Shown here piece after piece: positions 2,788-10,190 of a stretch of 10,190 bases of DNA. The notes beneath the pieces are model-generated. The model did not search any database. It had not been told where the DNA came from and saw only the letters and a list, made by a program, of their open reading frames with translations. The DNA is from Oligoflexia bacterium (lineage in GTDB: Bacteria; Bdellovibrionota; UBA1018). The DNA lies in the NCBI GenBank assembly GCA_043732485.1, contig JAYTHP010000190.1:1-10190 (forward strand), in the 5' to 3' direction. Positions within the stretch are counted from its first letter, which is position 1, and the number at the start of each line of letters is the position of its first letter. The translations under genes were made by a program, and so were the position numbers.

Positions 2788-2950
2788 TTGAATGCGAGAG
2801 TGTCCCACAAAAAAGCGTCCCCTGTGACAAGAACGCATCGGAAAGCGCTCTGACAGAGCAGAACAGACGAAGCAAAGTAGGATCGGAGAAAACAGGACCT
2901 TAAAAGCCTGAGTGGTCGGTTTGAAGGAGAGAGAGAAAGAGAGAAAAAAA

Positions 2951-3799
2951 ATGGATTTTAAAAGTCAAACACCCCCCCCGCATCATAGACCGCGCTCGCA
3001 ACTCCGCCCGCAACCCCGCCCGCTTACACTCAGCCTTGCGCTCGCACTCGCACTCGTCAGCCTTCGTTGCGCAGGCGGCGGCGTGAAATCAACTGACACC
3101 TCAGTCCCGATTAACAATCCCTTTGGCAAAACCTTTAACCCGGCCGCCCAAATCAAAGATCCTTTAATTTTACGCAGCCGCCAAGGCGATCGTTCCTGGG
3201 AGTTAGAAATCCCACAAAATCGCAGACAACCCGGAGACTTCGCCATTCCCTTTGCTCCGGCCCAGGCGCAAGGACAACCCCCCAAACCATCGACGTTCTC
3301 CTCAAGCCTAAGTCAATCGGACGGTGCCAGCGGCAATAGCACTGACGGCAGCGCAGCAGAGGGCACCTCCTATCAGGGCGCCCAACCAGGGGTATCGGAC
3401 CGGGAAATTGTGCAAGAATTAGGGCGGGGCTCAGAATCACTCAACATGAGGCGCGCGGCAGTGGAGCAGGAGCTTGATTTAGTGACCAGTGACGACTCTG
3501 ACCCGCGTGTGGGGCAAAAAAGTTACCTGGGCGATCTTGATCACATCAAGCAGCTGTTTCGTGCGCAGCGCTTCGAGGCGGCCCTCATTGAAACCGATTT
3601 GATGATTCGCACCTATCAAAATGACCCAAAACTGCACGAAATGCGCGGCACTTTGCTCAGTCGCTTAGGGAAAATGGAACTCGCCATTCGCTCCTGGCAG
3701 CAATCGCTGCATTTGAATCCCAAAAATGAAGCCCTCAAACAATTTATTCAACGCGCCAATGCTCGCTTGATGAGCCAAAGCACTGTGAGGAATCCATGA
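2951..3799 (+). CDS. Exported (possibly lipo-) protein with C-terminal TPR repeats (~282 aa)
   Basis: ATG 2951 after a purine-rich tract (track start GTG 2912). Hydrophobic LTLSLALALALVSLR-C (Cys40, non-canonical lipobox). C-terminal TPR pattern LFRAQRFEAALIE...PKLHEMRGTLLSRLGKMELAIRSWQQSLHLNPKN. Stop overlaps the next start (ATGA 3796-3799). Confidence 0.8.
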   Translation: MDFKSQTPPPHHRPRSQLRPQPRPLTLSLALALALVSLRCAGGGVKSTDTSVPINNPFGKTFNPAAQIKDPLILRSRQGDRSWELEIPQNRRQPGDFAIPFAPAQAQGQPPKPSTFSSSLSQSDGASGNSTDGSAAEGTSYQGAQPGVSDREIVQELGRGSESLNMRRAAVEQELDLVTSDDSDPRVGQKSYLGDLDHIKQLFRAQRFEAALIETDLMIRTYQNDPKLHEMRGTLLSRLGKMELAIRSWQQSLHLNPKNEALKQFIQRANARLMSQSTVRNP

Positions 3800-6270
3800 A
3801 CCACCAGCACCACCCCCACCAGCCCTCCGGCAAACCTTTCACCGCAAGCGCCCGCCACTTCTTGAGTCTCCTGAGCGCTGCCTACGGCCCTACTTATCTC
3901 CTGCTCCTTGGAGGCAGTCTGTCGCTCTTGTTGCCGCAGGTGACTTGGGCACGCTTTAAGCCAGAAGAGGCGCTCAAGAAGGAATACCAGCTCAAGGTAC
4001 AAAAAATTGTCGAGCCGATCCTCGCCAAATACTGCCCTGACCAGTGTAAGTTGCTGGGGGTGACCATCCAAGTCGATCTCGCCCACCCCGACAGCGTGCA
4101 ACCGGGCTTTGATGACCTCAACGTGCTGGAGAAAACTGAGCTTGAACCCGCAGCCGGGAGCTTGAAGATTCTCATGGACGAAAAACTAGGCCCCAACTCG
4201 CGTACCCGGATCAATGATTTGATCCAAGAGTACTTAGACACCTTCAATTTCCATATCGCCATTGAGAACATCACGCAGCATTTTCCACAAACCCAAGGGA
4301 CGGAAGCAAAAATGCTGGAGATGCGCCAGCGCATCTCCAAGCGCTTCAGCGATGTGATGGAAGAAACCCTGCAGCAGTTTTGTCCCAAGACCTGCTTACT
4401 GGGTGAAGTCGAGCTCCTCACCGAGCGCATCACGGGCGATGAGTTGCAAAACGGTGATCCCAATGAGTTCTACCAGGAAGGTGATTACGCCATCAGAATC
4501 AAAGACTTACGAGCTTCAATCTTGATGGATGACCGTTTGAACCCGCAAGAGCAAGCCAATTTGCTGGAGATCTTCAAGGTCAAGGCTCATGGCTTCAAGC
4601 ACGTCAGCATCAACGCACGCGCGCTTAAGTTTCCCAAGAATGCCTCAAGCCTTGAGGCGGCCAGCGAGCTGGGTGGGGGACAAGGCCAAGTCGGTGAAGG
4701 GCGCGGCGGGCTGAGGGAACAAAACACGGTGAACGGCACGACTGAGAAGAACTTGAACTCCAAGAGTGAGCAAAAATCCGTGAATGAGACCAATCTCTCG
4801 AGCAAAGCGGCGACTGAGAAAAAAGAAAGTCTGCTGAATGACACGAAAACCCAAGAATTCAGTCAAGACACCCGCAAGGAAAAGCTTGAGCGCTATGAGA
4901 AAATCGAGCGTGTTGAAAACGGCGACGCCGTGCAAGCGCAACTCAAGACCTTCCAGTTTTATAGCTTCCTGTTTGCAGCCTCGCTGCTGGCCATGCTCTT
5001 GTTCATCGCGCTGCAAGTCTCAAGCGTCAAAGCCCTCAAAGCGAAGCCTGAGACCACCCCGCTTCCCTATTTCCCGCTGCCTGCTCCCCTCCCTCACGCT
5101 GAGGAGAAGAGCGGTAAGACCAATGAGGCCAAGTCCGGAGCCGAGTCGTCGTCGTCAGCCGCCAGGAATAAGAATCGCCCGCTACTCACCCAGTACGAAG
5201 TGGAACGCTTGTACAACGAGCTGGTCTTGATCTTCTCGGAGCAACCCCGGATCGCCAAACACGTCTTTAGCCGCATTTTAACGGAAGAAGGTATCGAAGT
5301 GACCGCCCAGTACATCGATATCTTTGGGGAAACGATCGTACTCGATCTCTTGCGCGATCCCGGGCTGCAGGCCAATATGAACGAATTAGTGGAGTATTAC
5401 GGTCAACATCCCATGGAGTTAACGGCTGATCAGAAGCTTGAGCTGTTGCGCAAGCTCGAGAACCGCACGGTGGCAAGCAAACTGGCCTTACACCGCGGCC
5501 CGGCCTCCCAGCTGTTTGATTACCTCTCGGAGCTGGACGGTCTGCAGATCTGGGAGCTGATTCGCAGTGAGTCGCTGACCGTGCAATCGATCGTCTTGAC
5601 GCAAGTCGATATGCAAAAGCGCGCGGCGGTGTTTGCCAAGATTGATCCAGAAATGCGCATCCAACTGCTGACCGAACTGACCCGGGTGGATTACTTGCCG
5701 CGCGACTATATCTTTCAAGTGGCCTTGGCCTTGAAGCAAAAGCGCTCTGCCAATCCGAAACTCAACACTGAGGCCTTACCAGGCTCCGAAGTGCTAGTGA
5801 ACTTGCTAGAGAAAACTGGCCATGAGATGCAACGCACCGTGCTGCGTGAGTTGCAGCAATCCAGCCCTGAGAACGCCCAGATGGTGAAGAACAAGCTGCT
5901 CAGCATTGAGACTCTCAAGTACTTGCGCGACGGCCAGCTCAAGGAAGTGGTCTTAAGTCTCAAGCACGATGAGATTGCGCAATTTCTCTCAGGCACCAGC
6001 CCAGAGATGAGCGAGTTGCTATTTAAGAAGCTACCAGAAGACCTGGTGCTGGACTTGCGCGAGATGGTGGAGTCGATCCCGAGCGTTAACCACGAAACCT
6101 ACCTCGCGTTGGAGCGTAAACTACTGAACCGCATGAAAGTCTTGATCCAAGCAGGCCAAATCAACCTGTTTGAGACTAATGACCGGATGTTTGGCGCCGA
6201 CTTTACGCTCTTTAGCCCAGGGATCCCGAGCGGTAGCGGCAACGGGGCGGCGGAGAAAGTGGTATCATGA
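3796..6270 (+). CDS. Membrane-anchored FliG-domain protein (824 aa), probable FliF-like/FliG-like fusion rotor protein
   Basis: N-terminal signal/anchor (YLLLLGGSLSLLLPQVTWA). Two ~116-aa repeats each with CPxxC, ILMD and FP. TM at res ~388-406 (nt 4957-5013). C-terminal ~250 aa aligns by eye with FliG middle and C domains (FDYLSELDGLQIWELIRSE..., PGSEVLVNLLE, NPENA-like SPENAQMVKNKLLSIETL, ERKLLNRMKVLIQAGQINL). Directly upstream of motA/motB. Confidence 0.8.
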   Translation: MNHQHHPHQPSGKPFTASARHFLSLLSAAYGPTYLLLLGGSLSLLLPQVTWARFKPEEALKKEYQLKVQKIVEPILAKYCPDQCKLLGVTIQVDLAHPDSVQPGFDDLNVLEKTELEPAAGSLKILMDEKLGPNSRTRINDLIQEYLDTFNFHIAIENITQHFPQTQGTEAKMLEMRQRISKRFSDVMEETLQQFCPKTCLLGEVELLTERITGDELQNGDPNEFYQEGDYAIRIKDLRASILMDDRLNPQEQANLLEIFKVKAHGFKHVSINARALKFPKNASSLEAASELGGGQGQVGEGRGGLREQNTVNGTTEKNLNSKSEQKSVNETNLSSKAATEKKESLLNDTKTQEFSQDTRKEKLERYEKIERVENGDAVQAQLKTFQFYSFLFAASLLAMLLFIALQVSSVKALKAKPETTPLPYFPLPAPLPHAEEKSGKTNEAKSGAESSSSAARNKNRPLLTQYEVERLYNELVLIFSEQPRIAKHVFSRILTEEGIEVTAQYIDIFGETIVLDLLRDPGLQANMNELVEYYGQHPMELTADQKLELLRKLENRTVASKLALHRGPASQLFDYLSELDGLQIWELIRSESLTVQSIVLTQVDMQKRAAVFAKIDPEMRIQLLTELTRVDYLPRDYIFQVALALKQKRSANPKLNTEALPGSEVLVNLLEKTGHEMQRTVLRELQQSSPENAQMVKNKLLSIETLKYLRDGQLKEVVLSLKHDEIAQFLSGTSPEMSELLFKKLPEDLVLDLREMVESIPSVNHETYLALERKLLNRMKVLIQAGQINLFETNDRMFGADFTLFSPGIPSGSGNGAAEKVVS

Positions 6271-6384
6271 CCCATCTCACCTTATGCCACTCAGGCACAT
6301 TGAGTCGAGCTTTGGGAAGAAACCAGACAAGAACAACAATCTATTAACCTGCAGCAGCGGCACCTTTTGTTGGGAGATTTTCAC

Positions 6385-7176
6385 ATGAACTATTCGTCAC
6401 TCCTTGGGATTATTTGTGGTTTAGCCACCTTTTTTGGCTCCTTGCTCTCTACCGGCTCCAGCATCAGGTTTTTCATCGATCTCCGCGGGATCCTCATCGT
6501 GGTCGGAGGTACACTCTCAGCCGCCAGCATCTCGTTTCCGATTGCCAAGGTGTTAGCCCTCATGAAAGTCTTCTTCCTCAGGGTCTTAGGCCGGCATCAG
6601 ATTGATCGCCAAACCATGATCACCCAGTTCCTGGAAATCAACAAGCGGCTTGCAGCCTCCGACTCAGGAGCGGTAGAAGGCATGCTGCCGCAACTCAACC
6701 ATGAATTCTTCAAGGAGGCTGTGCAACTCGTTCACCAGGGGGTGTTAACGGCCAGTGAGATCCAACGCACGCTTGACACCCGCTTAAAAACCATCGAGGT
6801 GCGCTATTTACAAGAAGCCAACATGTTTCGGGTGATTGGTCGCTTTCCTCCGGCCTTTGGCTTGCTTGCCACCACCTTGGGGATGATCACCTTATTGCAA
6901 AAAATTGGTGAAGCCGATAGTCAAAAAATGATCGGTCCTGCCATGTCTATTGGTTTGATTGGCACGCTGTACGGGATTAGTCTCGCCAACTTGATGCTGA
7001 TCCCCATTGCTGAGAATCTCACCGAGCGCACCCACGAAGAGGTGCGGTTACGTAAAATGATCATTGCAGGCGCCGTCTTACTGAAGAATCAAGCAAGCCC
7101 CCTCTTGCTGCGCGAACACCTCAACTCCTACCTACTCCCAGGCGAGCGCGTGACGCGTCAGAAGGCTGCAGCATGA
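6385..7176 (+). CDS. motA: Flagellar-type stator A subunit MotA/PomA family (263 aa)
   Basis: SD GGGAG (6372-6376) before ATG 6385. Motifs ILIVVGGT (TM2), PAFGLLATTLGMI (TM3), IGPAMSIGLIGTLYG...ANLMLIPIAENL (TM4). ATGA overlap with motB. Confidence 0.95.
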   Translation: MNYSSLLGIICGLATFFGSLLSTGSSIRFFIDLRGILIVVGGTLSAASISFPIAKVLALMKVFFLRVLGRHQIDRQTMITQFLEINKRLAASDSGAVEGMLPQLNHEFFKEAVQLVHQGVLTASEIQRTLDTRLKTIEVRYLQEANMFRVIGRFPPAFGLLATTLGMITLLQKIGEADSQKMIGPAMSIGLIGTLYGISLANLMLIPIAENLTERTHEEVRLRKMIIAGAVLLKNQASPLLLREHLNSYLLPGERVTRQKAAA

Positions 7177-8081
7177 GCGAAAACTCTCCCTTCGGTGGTT
7201 CTTCTATTTCTGCTAAAAAAGACTCCAAGCTGCAACTCATGCCTCCAGTAGCGGTGCATGAGTTGGAAGAAGCCGAACCGCGCGCGAGCGAAGGGGATGA
7301 GTCCAATTGGCTGATCTCCTACGCCGACATGATGACGCTCTTGTGTGGTTTTTTCATCATGCTGTTTAGTCTCTCCACCCTAGAAGAGAAGAAATTTGAC
7401 TCCTTCAAAGAAGCCATGTCCAAACAAATGGGTGGCAAGTTTGAAGCCAGCAAACCCGCCACCTTAAGTCCGCCCCCCCCCTCGGTCACTGCCCCACCGC
7501 CTGCTAAAGCCGCAGGCGTGGTGATGCCCACCCACTTAGAGCGCTTAGGCGACATCCTCAAAAGTGACCCCGAGCTCACCCACAAAGCCCGGGTGACGAC
7601 GGATCCAAAAAGCCTAATGATTACCTTCCAATCGACCCTATTTTTTGAAACCCTCAGCACCCAGCTCACCCCGCCTGCCCATCACCTGCTTACTCGCATC
7701 ATGGAGCAAATCCAAAAATACGAGAACCAAGTGCATACTCCTTTTAAAATCATTATTGAAGGCCATACCGACAGTAGACCCATCACCTCGGGGATCTACC
7801 CCAGCAACTGGGAGCTCTCTGGCGCTCGCTCCGCCCGCGTGGTCAGGCTGTTTCTTGAGAAAAACTTCCAACCCACCCAGCTCACGGCCATCGGCTACGC
7901 CGACACCCATCCCGAGGTGAACGCCCGCACCAAGGACGGCAGCTGGAATGAAGCCCTGCTGATCCAAAATCGCCGAGTGGTGATTCGCATCATCGAAGGG
8001 CAAAATGAGTCGATTCCCTATCCGGCAGCACTCGCCGCCGCCCCTGCCCCGACCGTCAAAGCCTTACCGCAAAAACAGTAG
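7173..8081 (+). CDS. motB: Stator B subunit MotB/PomB family with OmpA-like peptidoglycan-binding domain (302 aa)
   Basis: NWLISYADMMTLLCGFFIMLFS TM with the essential Asp (D52, nt 7326-7328). OmpA-C motifs IIIEGHTD, YPSNWELSGARS, GYADTHP, NRRVVIRI. Confidence 0.96.
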   Translation: MSENSPFGGSSISAKKDSKLQLMPPVAVHELEEAEPRASEGDESNWLISYADMMTLLCGFFIMLFSLSTLEEKKFDSFKEAMSKQMGGKFEASKPATLSPPPPSVTAPPPAKAAGVVMPTHLERLGDILKSDPELTHKARVTTDPKSLMITFQSTLFFETLSTQLTPPAHHLLTRIMEQIQKYENQVHTPFKIIIEGHTDSRPITSGIYPSNWELSGARSARVVRLFLEKNFQPTQLTAIGYADTHPEVNARTKDGSWNEALLIQNRRVVIRIIEGQNESIPYPAALAAAPAPTVKALPQKQ

Positions 8082-8147: not shown

Positions 8148-9233
8148 ATGCAATGGAATTGCCCACAATGCGGAGTCTACCTCACCCTACCCCAAGAGTC
8201 ACTCGGAACTGGCTGGGCATTTTCCCGGTGTTATCAATGCGCGGGATTTGCACTGATTCGTCGCACCGAGGTTAACGTCATTAAAGTCGACCGCGCCCCG
8301 CCAGGCGAGCGCGTACTGCTGCCTGAAGCCCTACGTCCTGGGAAGTTTGCAGCCGCCGCAGCCTCCTCCTCCTCCTCCCCCCAAAGCAACGCGCACGCAA
8401 CCTCAATCCCGTTGCTCCGTGAATTTAACTCACACTTGATGCCAGAGACGACCACCACTACGCCGCTATCGTCGCCTGCCCATCTTAGATCGCTTGGAGG
8501 ATCTCTTGGAGTCAGCTTCTCCGAGCACGGCGCAACTGCGGACGAAAGCCACCTTCACAGCCCTCCCAAACTGCTCACCGCTGGTTCTCCCGTCGGCCAG
8601 CCCGAAACCCGCGGCGGTAGCTCGGCCAGACGCTACCTCACCTCCTGGATGTCGCTTGCAATTTATGCCTCAGGCTTCGTGTGCGTCGGGAGCGGCGCTT
8701 ATCTCGCCATCCAAGTGCAAAACTATATTACCCACCTGATGCCAACCCAGCGCCACCCTGCCGCAGCCGTCATCAGCAGTAACCCTAACAACAGTGCTGC
8801 CCACAAACCGGGGCCAAGCCAGGCTCTCGCGCCCTCGTCGCTAGCCGTTGCTCCGACGCTTGCTCCTCCGCTGCTTGACCCCAAACAAGGACAACAAGTC
8901 GCCATGATTACCGATAAAATGCAGCAAAGCGCCATGGCCCCCATCCCCGCTGACAGCAACCACCCGCCCACGCTGCTCCCACCCACACCACCAGCCTCCG
9001 CTCCCAAAGTGTGGATCAGACTTCAAGGCGCGCAACTCCACCTCGGACCAGGGACCCAGTCCGCCGTGGTCGGACAAGCCGCAACCGGGCAAGCCTACCA
9101 GGTGTTGCAAGCGACCGAGTCGGGCTGGTCTTTCCTCCAAGAGGATCCCCAAAACCCATCCCTGAGCGCCAACGCCTTGCCGCTCCAAAAAGGTTGGGTT
9201 AAGAACGAGTGGCTAACGCACTCGCACCCCTAA
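8148..9233 (+). CDS. Bitopic membrane protein: N-terminal zinc ribbon (MJ0042/zinc_ribbon_4-like), TM helix, Pro-rich linker, C-terminal SH3b-like domain (361 aa)
   Basis: Strong SD. CPQC-x19-CYQC at the extreme N-terminus. TM WMSLAIYASGFVCVGSGAYLAI (nt ~8646-8711). C-terminal AQLHLGPGTQSAVVGQAATGQAYQVL...GW...KGWVKNEWL matches the bacterial SH3 pattern (NLRxGPG...GW...GWV). Confidence 0.85.
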   Translation: MQWNCPQCGVYLTLPQESLGTGWAFSRCYQCAGFALIRRTEVNVIKVDRAPPGERVLLPEALRPGKFAAAAASSSSSPQSNAHATSIPLLREFNSHLMPETTTTTPLSSPAHLRSLGGSLGVSFSEHGATADESHLHSPPKLLTAGSPVGQPETRGGSSARRYLTSWMSLAIYASGFVCVGSGAYLAIQVQNYITHLMPTQRHPAAAVISSNPNNSAAHKPGPSQALAPSSLAVAPTLAPPLLDPKQGQQVAMITDKMQQSAMAPIPADSNHPPTLLPPTPPASAPKVWIRLQGAQLHLGPGTQSAVVGQAATGQAYQVLQATESGWSFLQEDPQNPSLSANALPLQKGWVKNEWLTHSHP

Positions 9234-9809
9234 GCCTACGGCGACGTTTTTATCGTCGGCTGTTCACGAAACTTAAGCGCATGGCGGCGGCAAGGAGCGG
9301 GATGGAGTGAAACCCTCACCCGCCGCAGTCTGATTGCTTGTGATCACACTGTCAGGGGCCTGAGAGGGGAGAAGCGCTTGGCAGTTGCGTGGTAAACTGC
9401 CCATATAGCCCTGTTTCGGAAAATTCGATTTTCCTTTAGCCTCCTAGCGCAGGTAATCCCCGGGACGGTAGGCCTTAAGCGCTTGGCTTTCTTTACGATT
9501 CACTCGGATTACGACCTTCTCTTAGGACTGATTTTAGGCCCTAACCCTCTGATCTGATTCAGGAAAAATAATTAAAAAACTGCCTTACTCCTGTTATTCT
9601 ACCAAATCTACCAAATTCTTTCAAAATTAACATTTTGGCCATCTTGCTCGCCGGTTTCTTTTTTGACGCAAGGAGTCATGCTTAACTGAACCCAAGGTAA
9701 GCGACCGACAGCATATCAGCCCCACCCCCCGCTTTCCATCCGTAAACCACTAGAAATGGAGTCATTAAATGACCCTGTCACACAGCAGGGGGTTGGCCGC
9801 CGACAGGTG

Positions 9810-9937
9810 GGTGAACTAATTACTACCGCTGCGAAGGATCTCTGGTGAGGGACCGGCGGCTTTTTAGGGGATCGGAGACTGGGGTCTTTGCACGCCGTTA
9901 GCACGACGGGTGGGCGAAGCGGGGTTGCAGTATGGCA
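9810..9937. repeat. Direct repeat copy 1 (>=128 bp)
   Basis: Matches 10063-10190 with 5 substitutions and no gaps in 128 nt. Confidence 0.95.
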
Positions 9938-10021: not shown

Positions 10022-10062
10022 CGGCTCTTATCGAGTCTATGGTATCGAGAGGCCCTGCTGTC

Positions 10063-10190
10063 GGTGAACTAATTACTACCGTCGCGAAGGAGCTCTGGTG
10101 AGGGACCGGCGGTTTTTTAGGGGATTGGAGACTGGGGTCTTTGCACGCCGTTAGCACGACGGGTGGGCGAAGCGGGGTTGCAGTATGGCA
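10063..10190. repeat. Direct repeat copy 2 (truncated by window end)
   Basis: 123/128 identical to 9810-9937; period 253 bp. Confidence 0.95.

Follow-up and report, generated by a model that had tools for sequence, protein, structure and literature searches.

A FliF-FliG fusion protein encoded beside its own flagellar-type stator in an Oligoflexia bacterium: a likely motor of the cell envelope

Contig JAYTHP010000190.1 of an Oligoflexia bacterium (Bdellovibrionota; assembly GCA_043732485.1), analysed here over 10,190 nt (hereafter the window), carries on the forward strand a gene for a protein of 824 aa (gene D; 3796-6270) that is a reduced fusion of the flagellar rotor proteins FliF and FliG: the first transmembrane helix (TM1), RBM1 and RBM2 are absent, the collar insert is shortened, the EHPQ motif is altered and an acidic residue occupies the position of the torque-helix Arg. 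The domain order of the protein, its operon with motA and motB, its coexistence with a separate, complete flagellar gene set and the presence of a related module in genomes without detectable flagellar genes are described below. Since the module also occurs in genomes without a detectable flagellum, it is likely not used for swimming, and the gene set is likely to encode a motor, not described before, that drives some process in the cell envelope instead. The best reading is that the module works like the rotor-stator core of the flagellum but belongs neither to FliF or canonical FliG nor to the flagellar system. With modest confidence, it is regarded as a non-flagellar, ion-driven rotor-stator that is coupled to the outer membrane and has a one-chain, reduced FliF-FliG rotor.

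Domain architecture of the fusion protein

Gene D is a real, conserved open reading frame (ORF) without internal stop codon. A protein search of 5.8 billion sequences yielded 176 homologues at E<=0.001; per-residue and motif counts for the gene D clade refer to the 119 or 120 of these that were listed. The 120 listed matches are 731-839 aa long, all but one of them covering 95-100% of the query region; they are mostly 41-48% identical to gene D and, where an organism name is given, are labelled Bdellovibrionota, Bdellovibrionales, Oligoflexia, Bdellovibrio sp. or unclassified. An assembly artefact, which a preliminary description of the fusion had considered, is excluded by these homologues of similar length and coverage and by contigs of two possible source runs, which span 3700-7300 without any difference; a contig of a second study covers 4903-5379, from the transmembrane helix to the start of FliG-N, and shows no difference either.

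The FliG-M and FliG-C domains named in the preliminary description are firmly assigned. Pfam FliG_M matches residues 584-654 (E 7e-7) and FliG_C residues 685-791 (E 6e-11), both over the cut-off, and each of the eight solved-structure matches of the protein is to a FliG chain or to a FliF-FliG construct. FliG-M extends over residues 570-654 (5503-5757) and FliG-C over residues 660-791 (5773-6168), with the torque helix at 746-759. An MgtE N-terminal repeat (PF03448), which had been named as a competing explanation of the C-terminus, was rejected: Pfam MgtE_N stayed below its cut-off and gave no better fold match than FliG. With 48.3 bits against a cut-off of 226.7, gene D falls outside the canonical FliG equivalog TIGR00207, and two functional motifs have changed. 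The EHPQ motif of FliG-M is the contact to FliM; at this position gene D reads ESLT (ESLT-type in the clade) with only the Glu kept, compared with E.PQ in 23 of 23 canonical FliG sequences. The torque-helix Arg position is taken by Asp749, with Asp or Glu in 120/120 homologues and the Arg pattern in 20/23 canonical sequences, and the acids that follow it are kept in 117-118 of the 120 homologues, gene D itself having Met at one of them. In the available part of PMC7564593, R90 and E98 of MotA are paired with D289 and R281 of FliG (R281 in E. coli/Salmonella numbering).

The periplasmic part begins with a predicted cleavable signal peptide (residues 1-52; 3796-3951) in place of the TM1 of FliF; of 119 homologues examined by a simple pattern scan, 118 had a hydrophobic core and 117 an AxA-like site. 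Two repeats follow, at residues 56-161 (3961-4278) with the pair Cys80/Cys84 and at residues 167-277 (4294-4626) with the invariant Cys196/Cys200, both of the alpha-beta-beta-alpha-beta fold of the FliF RBM3 (S-ring) domain, an assignment that is well supported. The transmembrane helix of the preliminary description was recovered as one hydrophobic segment at about residues 388-406 (4957-5013), in the position of the TM2 of FliF, and exactly one such helix after the N-terminus is present in 119/119 homologues scored. RBM1-RBM2 (YscJ_FliF, PF01514) had no Pfam match in the window, and gene D profiles reached at most 9% against RBM1 or RBM2; the protein, with its single transmembrane helix, does not show the FliF feature set of RBM1-RBM2 behind an N-terminal TM1.

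Between the membrane helix and FliG-M, a FliF-C-like kinked helix pair (residues about 466-497; 5191-5286), whose Pro484 is invariant in the 120 listed homologues, is followed by FliG-N-like helices (residues 498-566; 5287-5493). Of the two peptides on which the fusion had originally been recognised, the first spans residues 473-495 (nt 5212-5280) and the second starts at residue 499 (nt 5290), after a gap of three residues. For this junction, the target profile was drawn from the canonical FliF-C plus FliG-N sequences of 30 genomes in the phylum. Residues 460-572 matched it with an HHalign probability of 29% (E 6e-4) in the register that had been proposed, ahead of 60/60 column shuffles, and reversed and order-swapped controls stayed below 2%. 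In this weak direct match (29%, E 6e-4) the FliG-binding helix of FliF has the invariant Pro in register; with the close profile it reached 8%, and FliG-N gave a weak direct match of 2%; structural alignments to full FliG begin at residues 496-499 vs FliG 4-7. Two results speak against a FliF-C/FliG-N junction: the close-homologue profile of residues 460-572 scores 1% against FliF-C plus FliG-N, and the FliG-M window scores 23.2 vs 26.3 in the junction profile test. A Pfam scan of the protein gave neither a FliG_N nor a YscJ_FliF match. The junction similarity is weak directly and is bridged by relatives (90% and 94%).

Bridging relatives, split form and phylogeny

The bridging set consisted of 14 weak-match proteins of 557-724 aa and eight locus ORFs, minus one duplicate and L060, and was split by eye into groups of 13 and 7; since the 13 were picked partly because many of them bear the RGD-type motif found at the end of FliF RBM3, the test was not blind. 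The single periplasmic domain of these relatives matches FliF RBM3 at 97% (RBM1 and RBM2 below 1%), and their cytoplasmic start matches FliF-C plus FliG-N at 94%. Against gene D, the same relatives reach 87% and 95% for the two repeats and 90% for residues 460-572.

A split form of the gene provides further evidence. Three soluble FliG-like proteins, two of them labelled Marinimicrobia, cluster with the fused forms in the tree, and in 80 metagenome loci of the Marinimicrobia type an abutting upstream ORF was found in 79 and the RGD motif in 75; motA and motB were matched in all 48 loci with enough flank. The upstream protein comprises a signal, an RBM3 domain, a long polar, probably coiled-coil segment, a transmembrane helix and the FliF-C helix, and is followed by a separate FliG-like gene. 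Its RBM3 reaches 98% against FliF RBM3 and 81% and 75% against the gene D repeats, its FliF-C helix 95%, and the N domain of the FliG-like gene 99%; the junction against the gene D family reaches only 2.7%, above 30/30 shuffles. This arrangement of an RBM3-TM-FliF-C gene and a FliG-like gene beside motAB supports the reading as a fusion. Upstream of motA, the split-form loci also encode a protein of 450 aa whose C-terminus bears a TPR, together with one or two other conserved secreted proteins; no match to gene B of the window (see below) was found in them.

Phylogenetic comparison with canonical FliG was made by a quick IQ-TREE run on the FliG M and C domains (85 rows, 224 columns), which gave an unrooted tree with long branches. 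In it, 42 membrane-anchored and 3 split-form sequences stand apart from 23 canonical and 17 other soluble FliG-like sequences (SH-like approximate likelihood ratio, SH-aLRT, 97). Vibrio fused forms do not group with Vibrio FliG, and the gene D clade does not group with its own canonical FliG. The two-repeat clade (SH-aLRT 96) joins single-repeat forms that mostly bear the Cys pair (97), so that the RBM3 duplication looks derived.

Domain order, bridging relatives and the split form together support the earlier proposal of a strongly diverged FliF-FliG fusion in one polypeptide. That FliG-MC was instead joined to unrelated RBM-like and helical domains by convergence would agree with the lack of Pfam FliF or FliG_N matches and with the weak direct profile matches. 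It is nevertheless extremely improbable in view of the relatives that match FliF RBM3, FliF-C plus FliG-N and both parts of gene D at the values given above, and of the existence of the split form.

Operon, distribution and possible function

From related genomes, 34 loci around strong gene D matches, not every strong match, were fetched; 31 of them contain B, C, D, motA and motB, and the other three stop at contig ends. Gene B (1360-2730, forward) encodes a predicted outer-membrane protein with a TolB-N/LpoB-like domain and a modelled eight-stranded OmpA-type barrel ending in Phe. Gene C (2912-3799, forward), whose stop overlaps the start of gene D, encodes a predicted lipoprotein with C-terminal TPR; its TPR matches lie below the Pfam cut-off, and a lipobox-like Cys is present in 27/34 family ORFs. 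Downstream, motA (6367-7176, forward; PomA E 1e-29) encodes a flagellar-type stator A subunit, and motB (7173-8081, forward) a protein in which the plug, the conserved membrane Asp and an OmpA-like domain for peptidoglycan binding are all present; the MotA fold was found as well. The rotor-facing Arg...Glu motif of canonical MotA is altered: the Arg column is lost in 33 clade MotAs, in which a basic pair lies 2-3 residues before it and the acid about one residue later than in the canonical protein. The best NCBIfam matches of the stator are MotA/PomA/MotP (E 2e-36) vs TolQ (6e-4), and no TonB or TolA family match was obtained among seven window ORFs scanned; these genes do not form an ExbBD/TolQR-type motor with a TonB/TolA transducer.

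In 29 of the 32 relative loci that hold both D and motA, a stand-alone cyclic-nucleotide-binding gene lies between them, where the window has a spacer of 96 nt (6271-6366, forward). No PF00027 match was found in the whole source genome (89% complete), which agrees with a loss of this gene from the operon. A 26-codon ORF at 6267-6347 overlaps the gene D stop at the place where the gene begins in relatives; no similarity was detected for it.

Matches to gene D with E<1e-100 were present in 44 of 60 related genomes, comprising 32/36 in the family and 12/24 in the rest of the order. In a phylum-wide sample of 120 genomes, 11 had the two-repeat form, all within the order of the source; single-repeat forms were found elsewhere in the phylum, with a patchy distribution outside the order. 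The source genome also keeps separate canonical fliF and fliG genes, which lie on contig C171, and flagellin genes, with six Flagellin_N matches in total, as well as a second motAB, with its MotB plug on contig C116. None of six ORFs of the C171 fliF-fliG cluster, five of which we take to be FlgB, FlgC, FliE, FliH and FliI, had a homologue in any module locus examined. Two genomes, G124 (91% complete) and G110 (89%), contain a distant single-RBM module with B, C, D, motA and motB and gave no match to FliF, canonical FliG, flagellin or FlhA; co-occurrence of the module with export apparatus, FliF and flagellin does not hold in them. Further divergent single-RBM paralogues were noticed in flagellated Bdellovibrionota genomes, some of which carry two; some lie several genes from motAB or have no motAB in the fetched stretch. 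A stand-alone FliG_C-only protein of about 145 aa is encoded beside apparent ribonucleotide reductase genes on contig C19 of the source genome (17485-17940, reverse), and similar short ORFs occur in other genomes.

A single-repeat form is present in Aliivibrio, Vibrio and a Shewanellaceae metagenome-assembled genome, with C, D, motA and motB in order in 8/8 loci and a B-like gene upstream (hidden Markov model match in 5/8). In A. fischeri ES114, primers given in PMC3948606 map the stator genes of the module to the published motA2/motB2. The locus is a five-gene module ordered as in the window; it differs in its single RBM3, and the upstream fusion gene is not described in the available sections of PMC3948606. 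Directly upstream of the Aliivibrio modules, the same strand encodes a response regulator and a sensor kinase; downstream of the modules lies an apparent molybdoenzyme/cytochrome c pair.

These observations bear on the possibility of an accessory or alternative flagellar rotor, in which gene D would co-assemble with or replace FliF and FliG and its MotAB would be an extra flagellar stator. Every part is of flagellar type, the source genome is flagellated, engineered FliF-FliG fusions form rings (PMC11481574, available part) and, in the accessible portion of 10.1101/2023.08.07.552283, one biofilm model of A. fischeri showed down-regulation of motA2/motB2 along with fliA. We consider this explanation very unlikely, however, as gene D lacks RBM1/RBM2 and TM1 and has an altered EHPQ, two genomes that carry the module gave no match to FliF, FlhA or flagellin, and motA2/motB2 insertion mutants swam normally in soft agar (PMC3948606, sections available). 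According to the same paper, motA2/motB2 lie outside the FlrA regulon.

In the favoured reading of a non-flagellar rotor-stator, the gene D product would assemble into an inner-membrane ring that is turned by its own MotA/MotB ion motor. The RBM3 repeats may oligomerise in the periplasm, and the FliF-C helix may co-fold in cis with FliG-N. MotB would bind peptidoglycan, and MotA would engage FliG-C through a private, non-canonical charge pattern. Since EHPQ is altered, no FliM switch would be expected to bind, and the motor would run without chemotactic reversal. The cyclic-nucleotide-binding protein, presumably lost in the source genome, could tune the motor in most relatives. The products of genes C and B would transmit the force to the outer membrane, so that flagellar parts would perform a task like that of Ton or Tol, with transport, envelope remodelling and surface attachment as candidate outputs. 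More tentatively, and with slightly less than even confidence, a minimal flagellum-independent rotary motor is proposed, with one-gene MS/C-ring rotor, dedicated MotAB and outer-membrane barrel, which would be an ancient paralogue of the core of the flagellar motor, preserved fused in Bdellovibrionota, Aliivibrio and Vibrio and split in Marinimicrobia.

A related possibility is that the rotor drives an outer-membrane adhesin complex for surface motility or prey attachment, like gliding machines. Rotor, stator, lipoprotein and barrel together span the envelope, and the module is frequent in the order of the source genome, where the named members are Bdellovibrionota. It also occurs in Aliivibrio and Vibrio, which are not known to glide, is patchy outside the order of the source and has no adhesin or track genes noticed in the examined loci, and such a role therefore appears unlikely. 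Likewise improbable is a non-rotating sensor or gated ion channel, in which gene D would tether and gate MotAB under envelope stress and signal via ion flux or the cyclic-nucleotide-binding protein. The acid at the torque-helix Arg position in 120/120 homologues, the cyclic-nucleotide-binding gene inside the operon in 29/32 loci and the two-component pair upstream in Aliivibrio would fit a sensor, but FliG M and C are kept whole, with 41-48% identity across the clade, the torque-helix Arg is present in the Aliivibrio form and in P0262-type split forms, and the cyclic-nucleotide-binding gene is dispensable, being missing in the window and in loci L046-L048.

Two further genes flank the module in the window. 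Gene A (164-1081, reverse), divergent from gene B, encodes a predicted lipoprotein, is linked in 30/34 loci and matched no known family in family scans. Gene G (8148-9233, forward), linked in 23/34 loci, encodes a protein with two Cys pairs at the N-terminus, a transmembrane helix and a weak SH3-like C-terminus (SH3_3, E 0.002, below cut-off). A 13-nt tandem repeat of about four units lies between genes A and B (1184-1235), an element of about 57 nt at about 9389-9448 has related copies on 9 other contigs of the source genome, and a 131-nt direct repeat (9807-9937 and 10060-10190, 95% identical) at the contig end has related copies on contig C159 and no Rfam match.

Comparison with known systems

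To our knowledge, torque generation by FliG and MotAB is known only from flagella. If the favoured reading is true, the module, which lacks an export gate, rod, switch and filament, would be simpler than any other natural motor of flagellar type. It could serve to test whether the motor core is able to function independently of the flagellum and may also have originated that way. The module would also give a likely role to the orphan stator pair motA2B2 of A. fischeri, where ES114 and the existing stator mutants offer an immediate test system, and would caution that extra fliG and motAB annotations need not mean extra flagellar parts. No account of the module was found in the literature searched, including the available parts of PMC12505986, PMC13277936, PMC11323537, PMC13023049 and 10.1101/2025.02.19.638989.

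The module shares with flagellar FliF and FliG and their MotA5B2/PomA5B2 stators the RBM3 fold, the transmembrane helix, probably the FliF-C-like helix and the order of a FliG-N-like part before FliG M and C, and a stator whose MotB has the plug, the membrane Asp and the OmpA-like domain. In contrast, gene D is one chain with a signal peptide instead of TM1 and no RBM1/RBM2, its RBM3 occurs twice, carrying Cys pairs and a shortened insert, the EHPQ motif and the torque-helix Arg are altered, and no rod, export or switch genes lie nearby, their place as partners being taken by an outer-membrane barrel and a TPR lipoprotein. FliF and FliG have been joined in one polypeptide in the laboratory in Salmonella as well as in Vibrio, but those fusions contain the full flagellar proteins, whereas gene D is natural and reduced. 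The engineered Vibrio fusion forms rings (PMC11481574, PMC10941966, available parts). The natural FliF-FliG fusion of Chlamydiaceae, as presented in the accessible part of PMC4768692, is likewise reduced and in a non-flagellar setting; it has about 330 aa, two transmembrane helices, an RBM2-like part and a FliG-M-like region only, is linked to the injectisome and comes without a described stator, whereas gene D has RBM3-type repeats, an apparently full FliG N/M/C and dedicated MotAB. With the 5:2 motors Ton, Tol-Pal, Agl-Glt and Zorya (PMC12505986, in part) the module has in common an inner-membrane ion motor, envelope partners and a non-flagellar job, and with Tol also the TolB-N-like fold of gene B, but its stator is of flagellar type and works with a FliG-containing partner instead of a TonB/TolA-type transducer.

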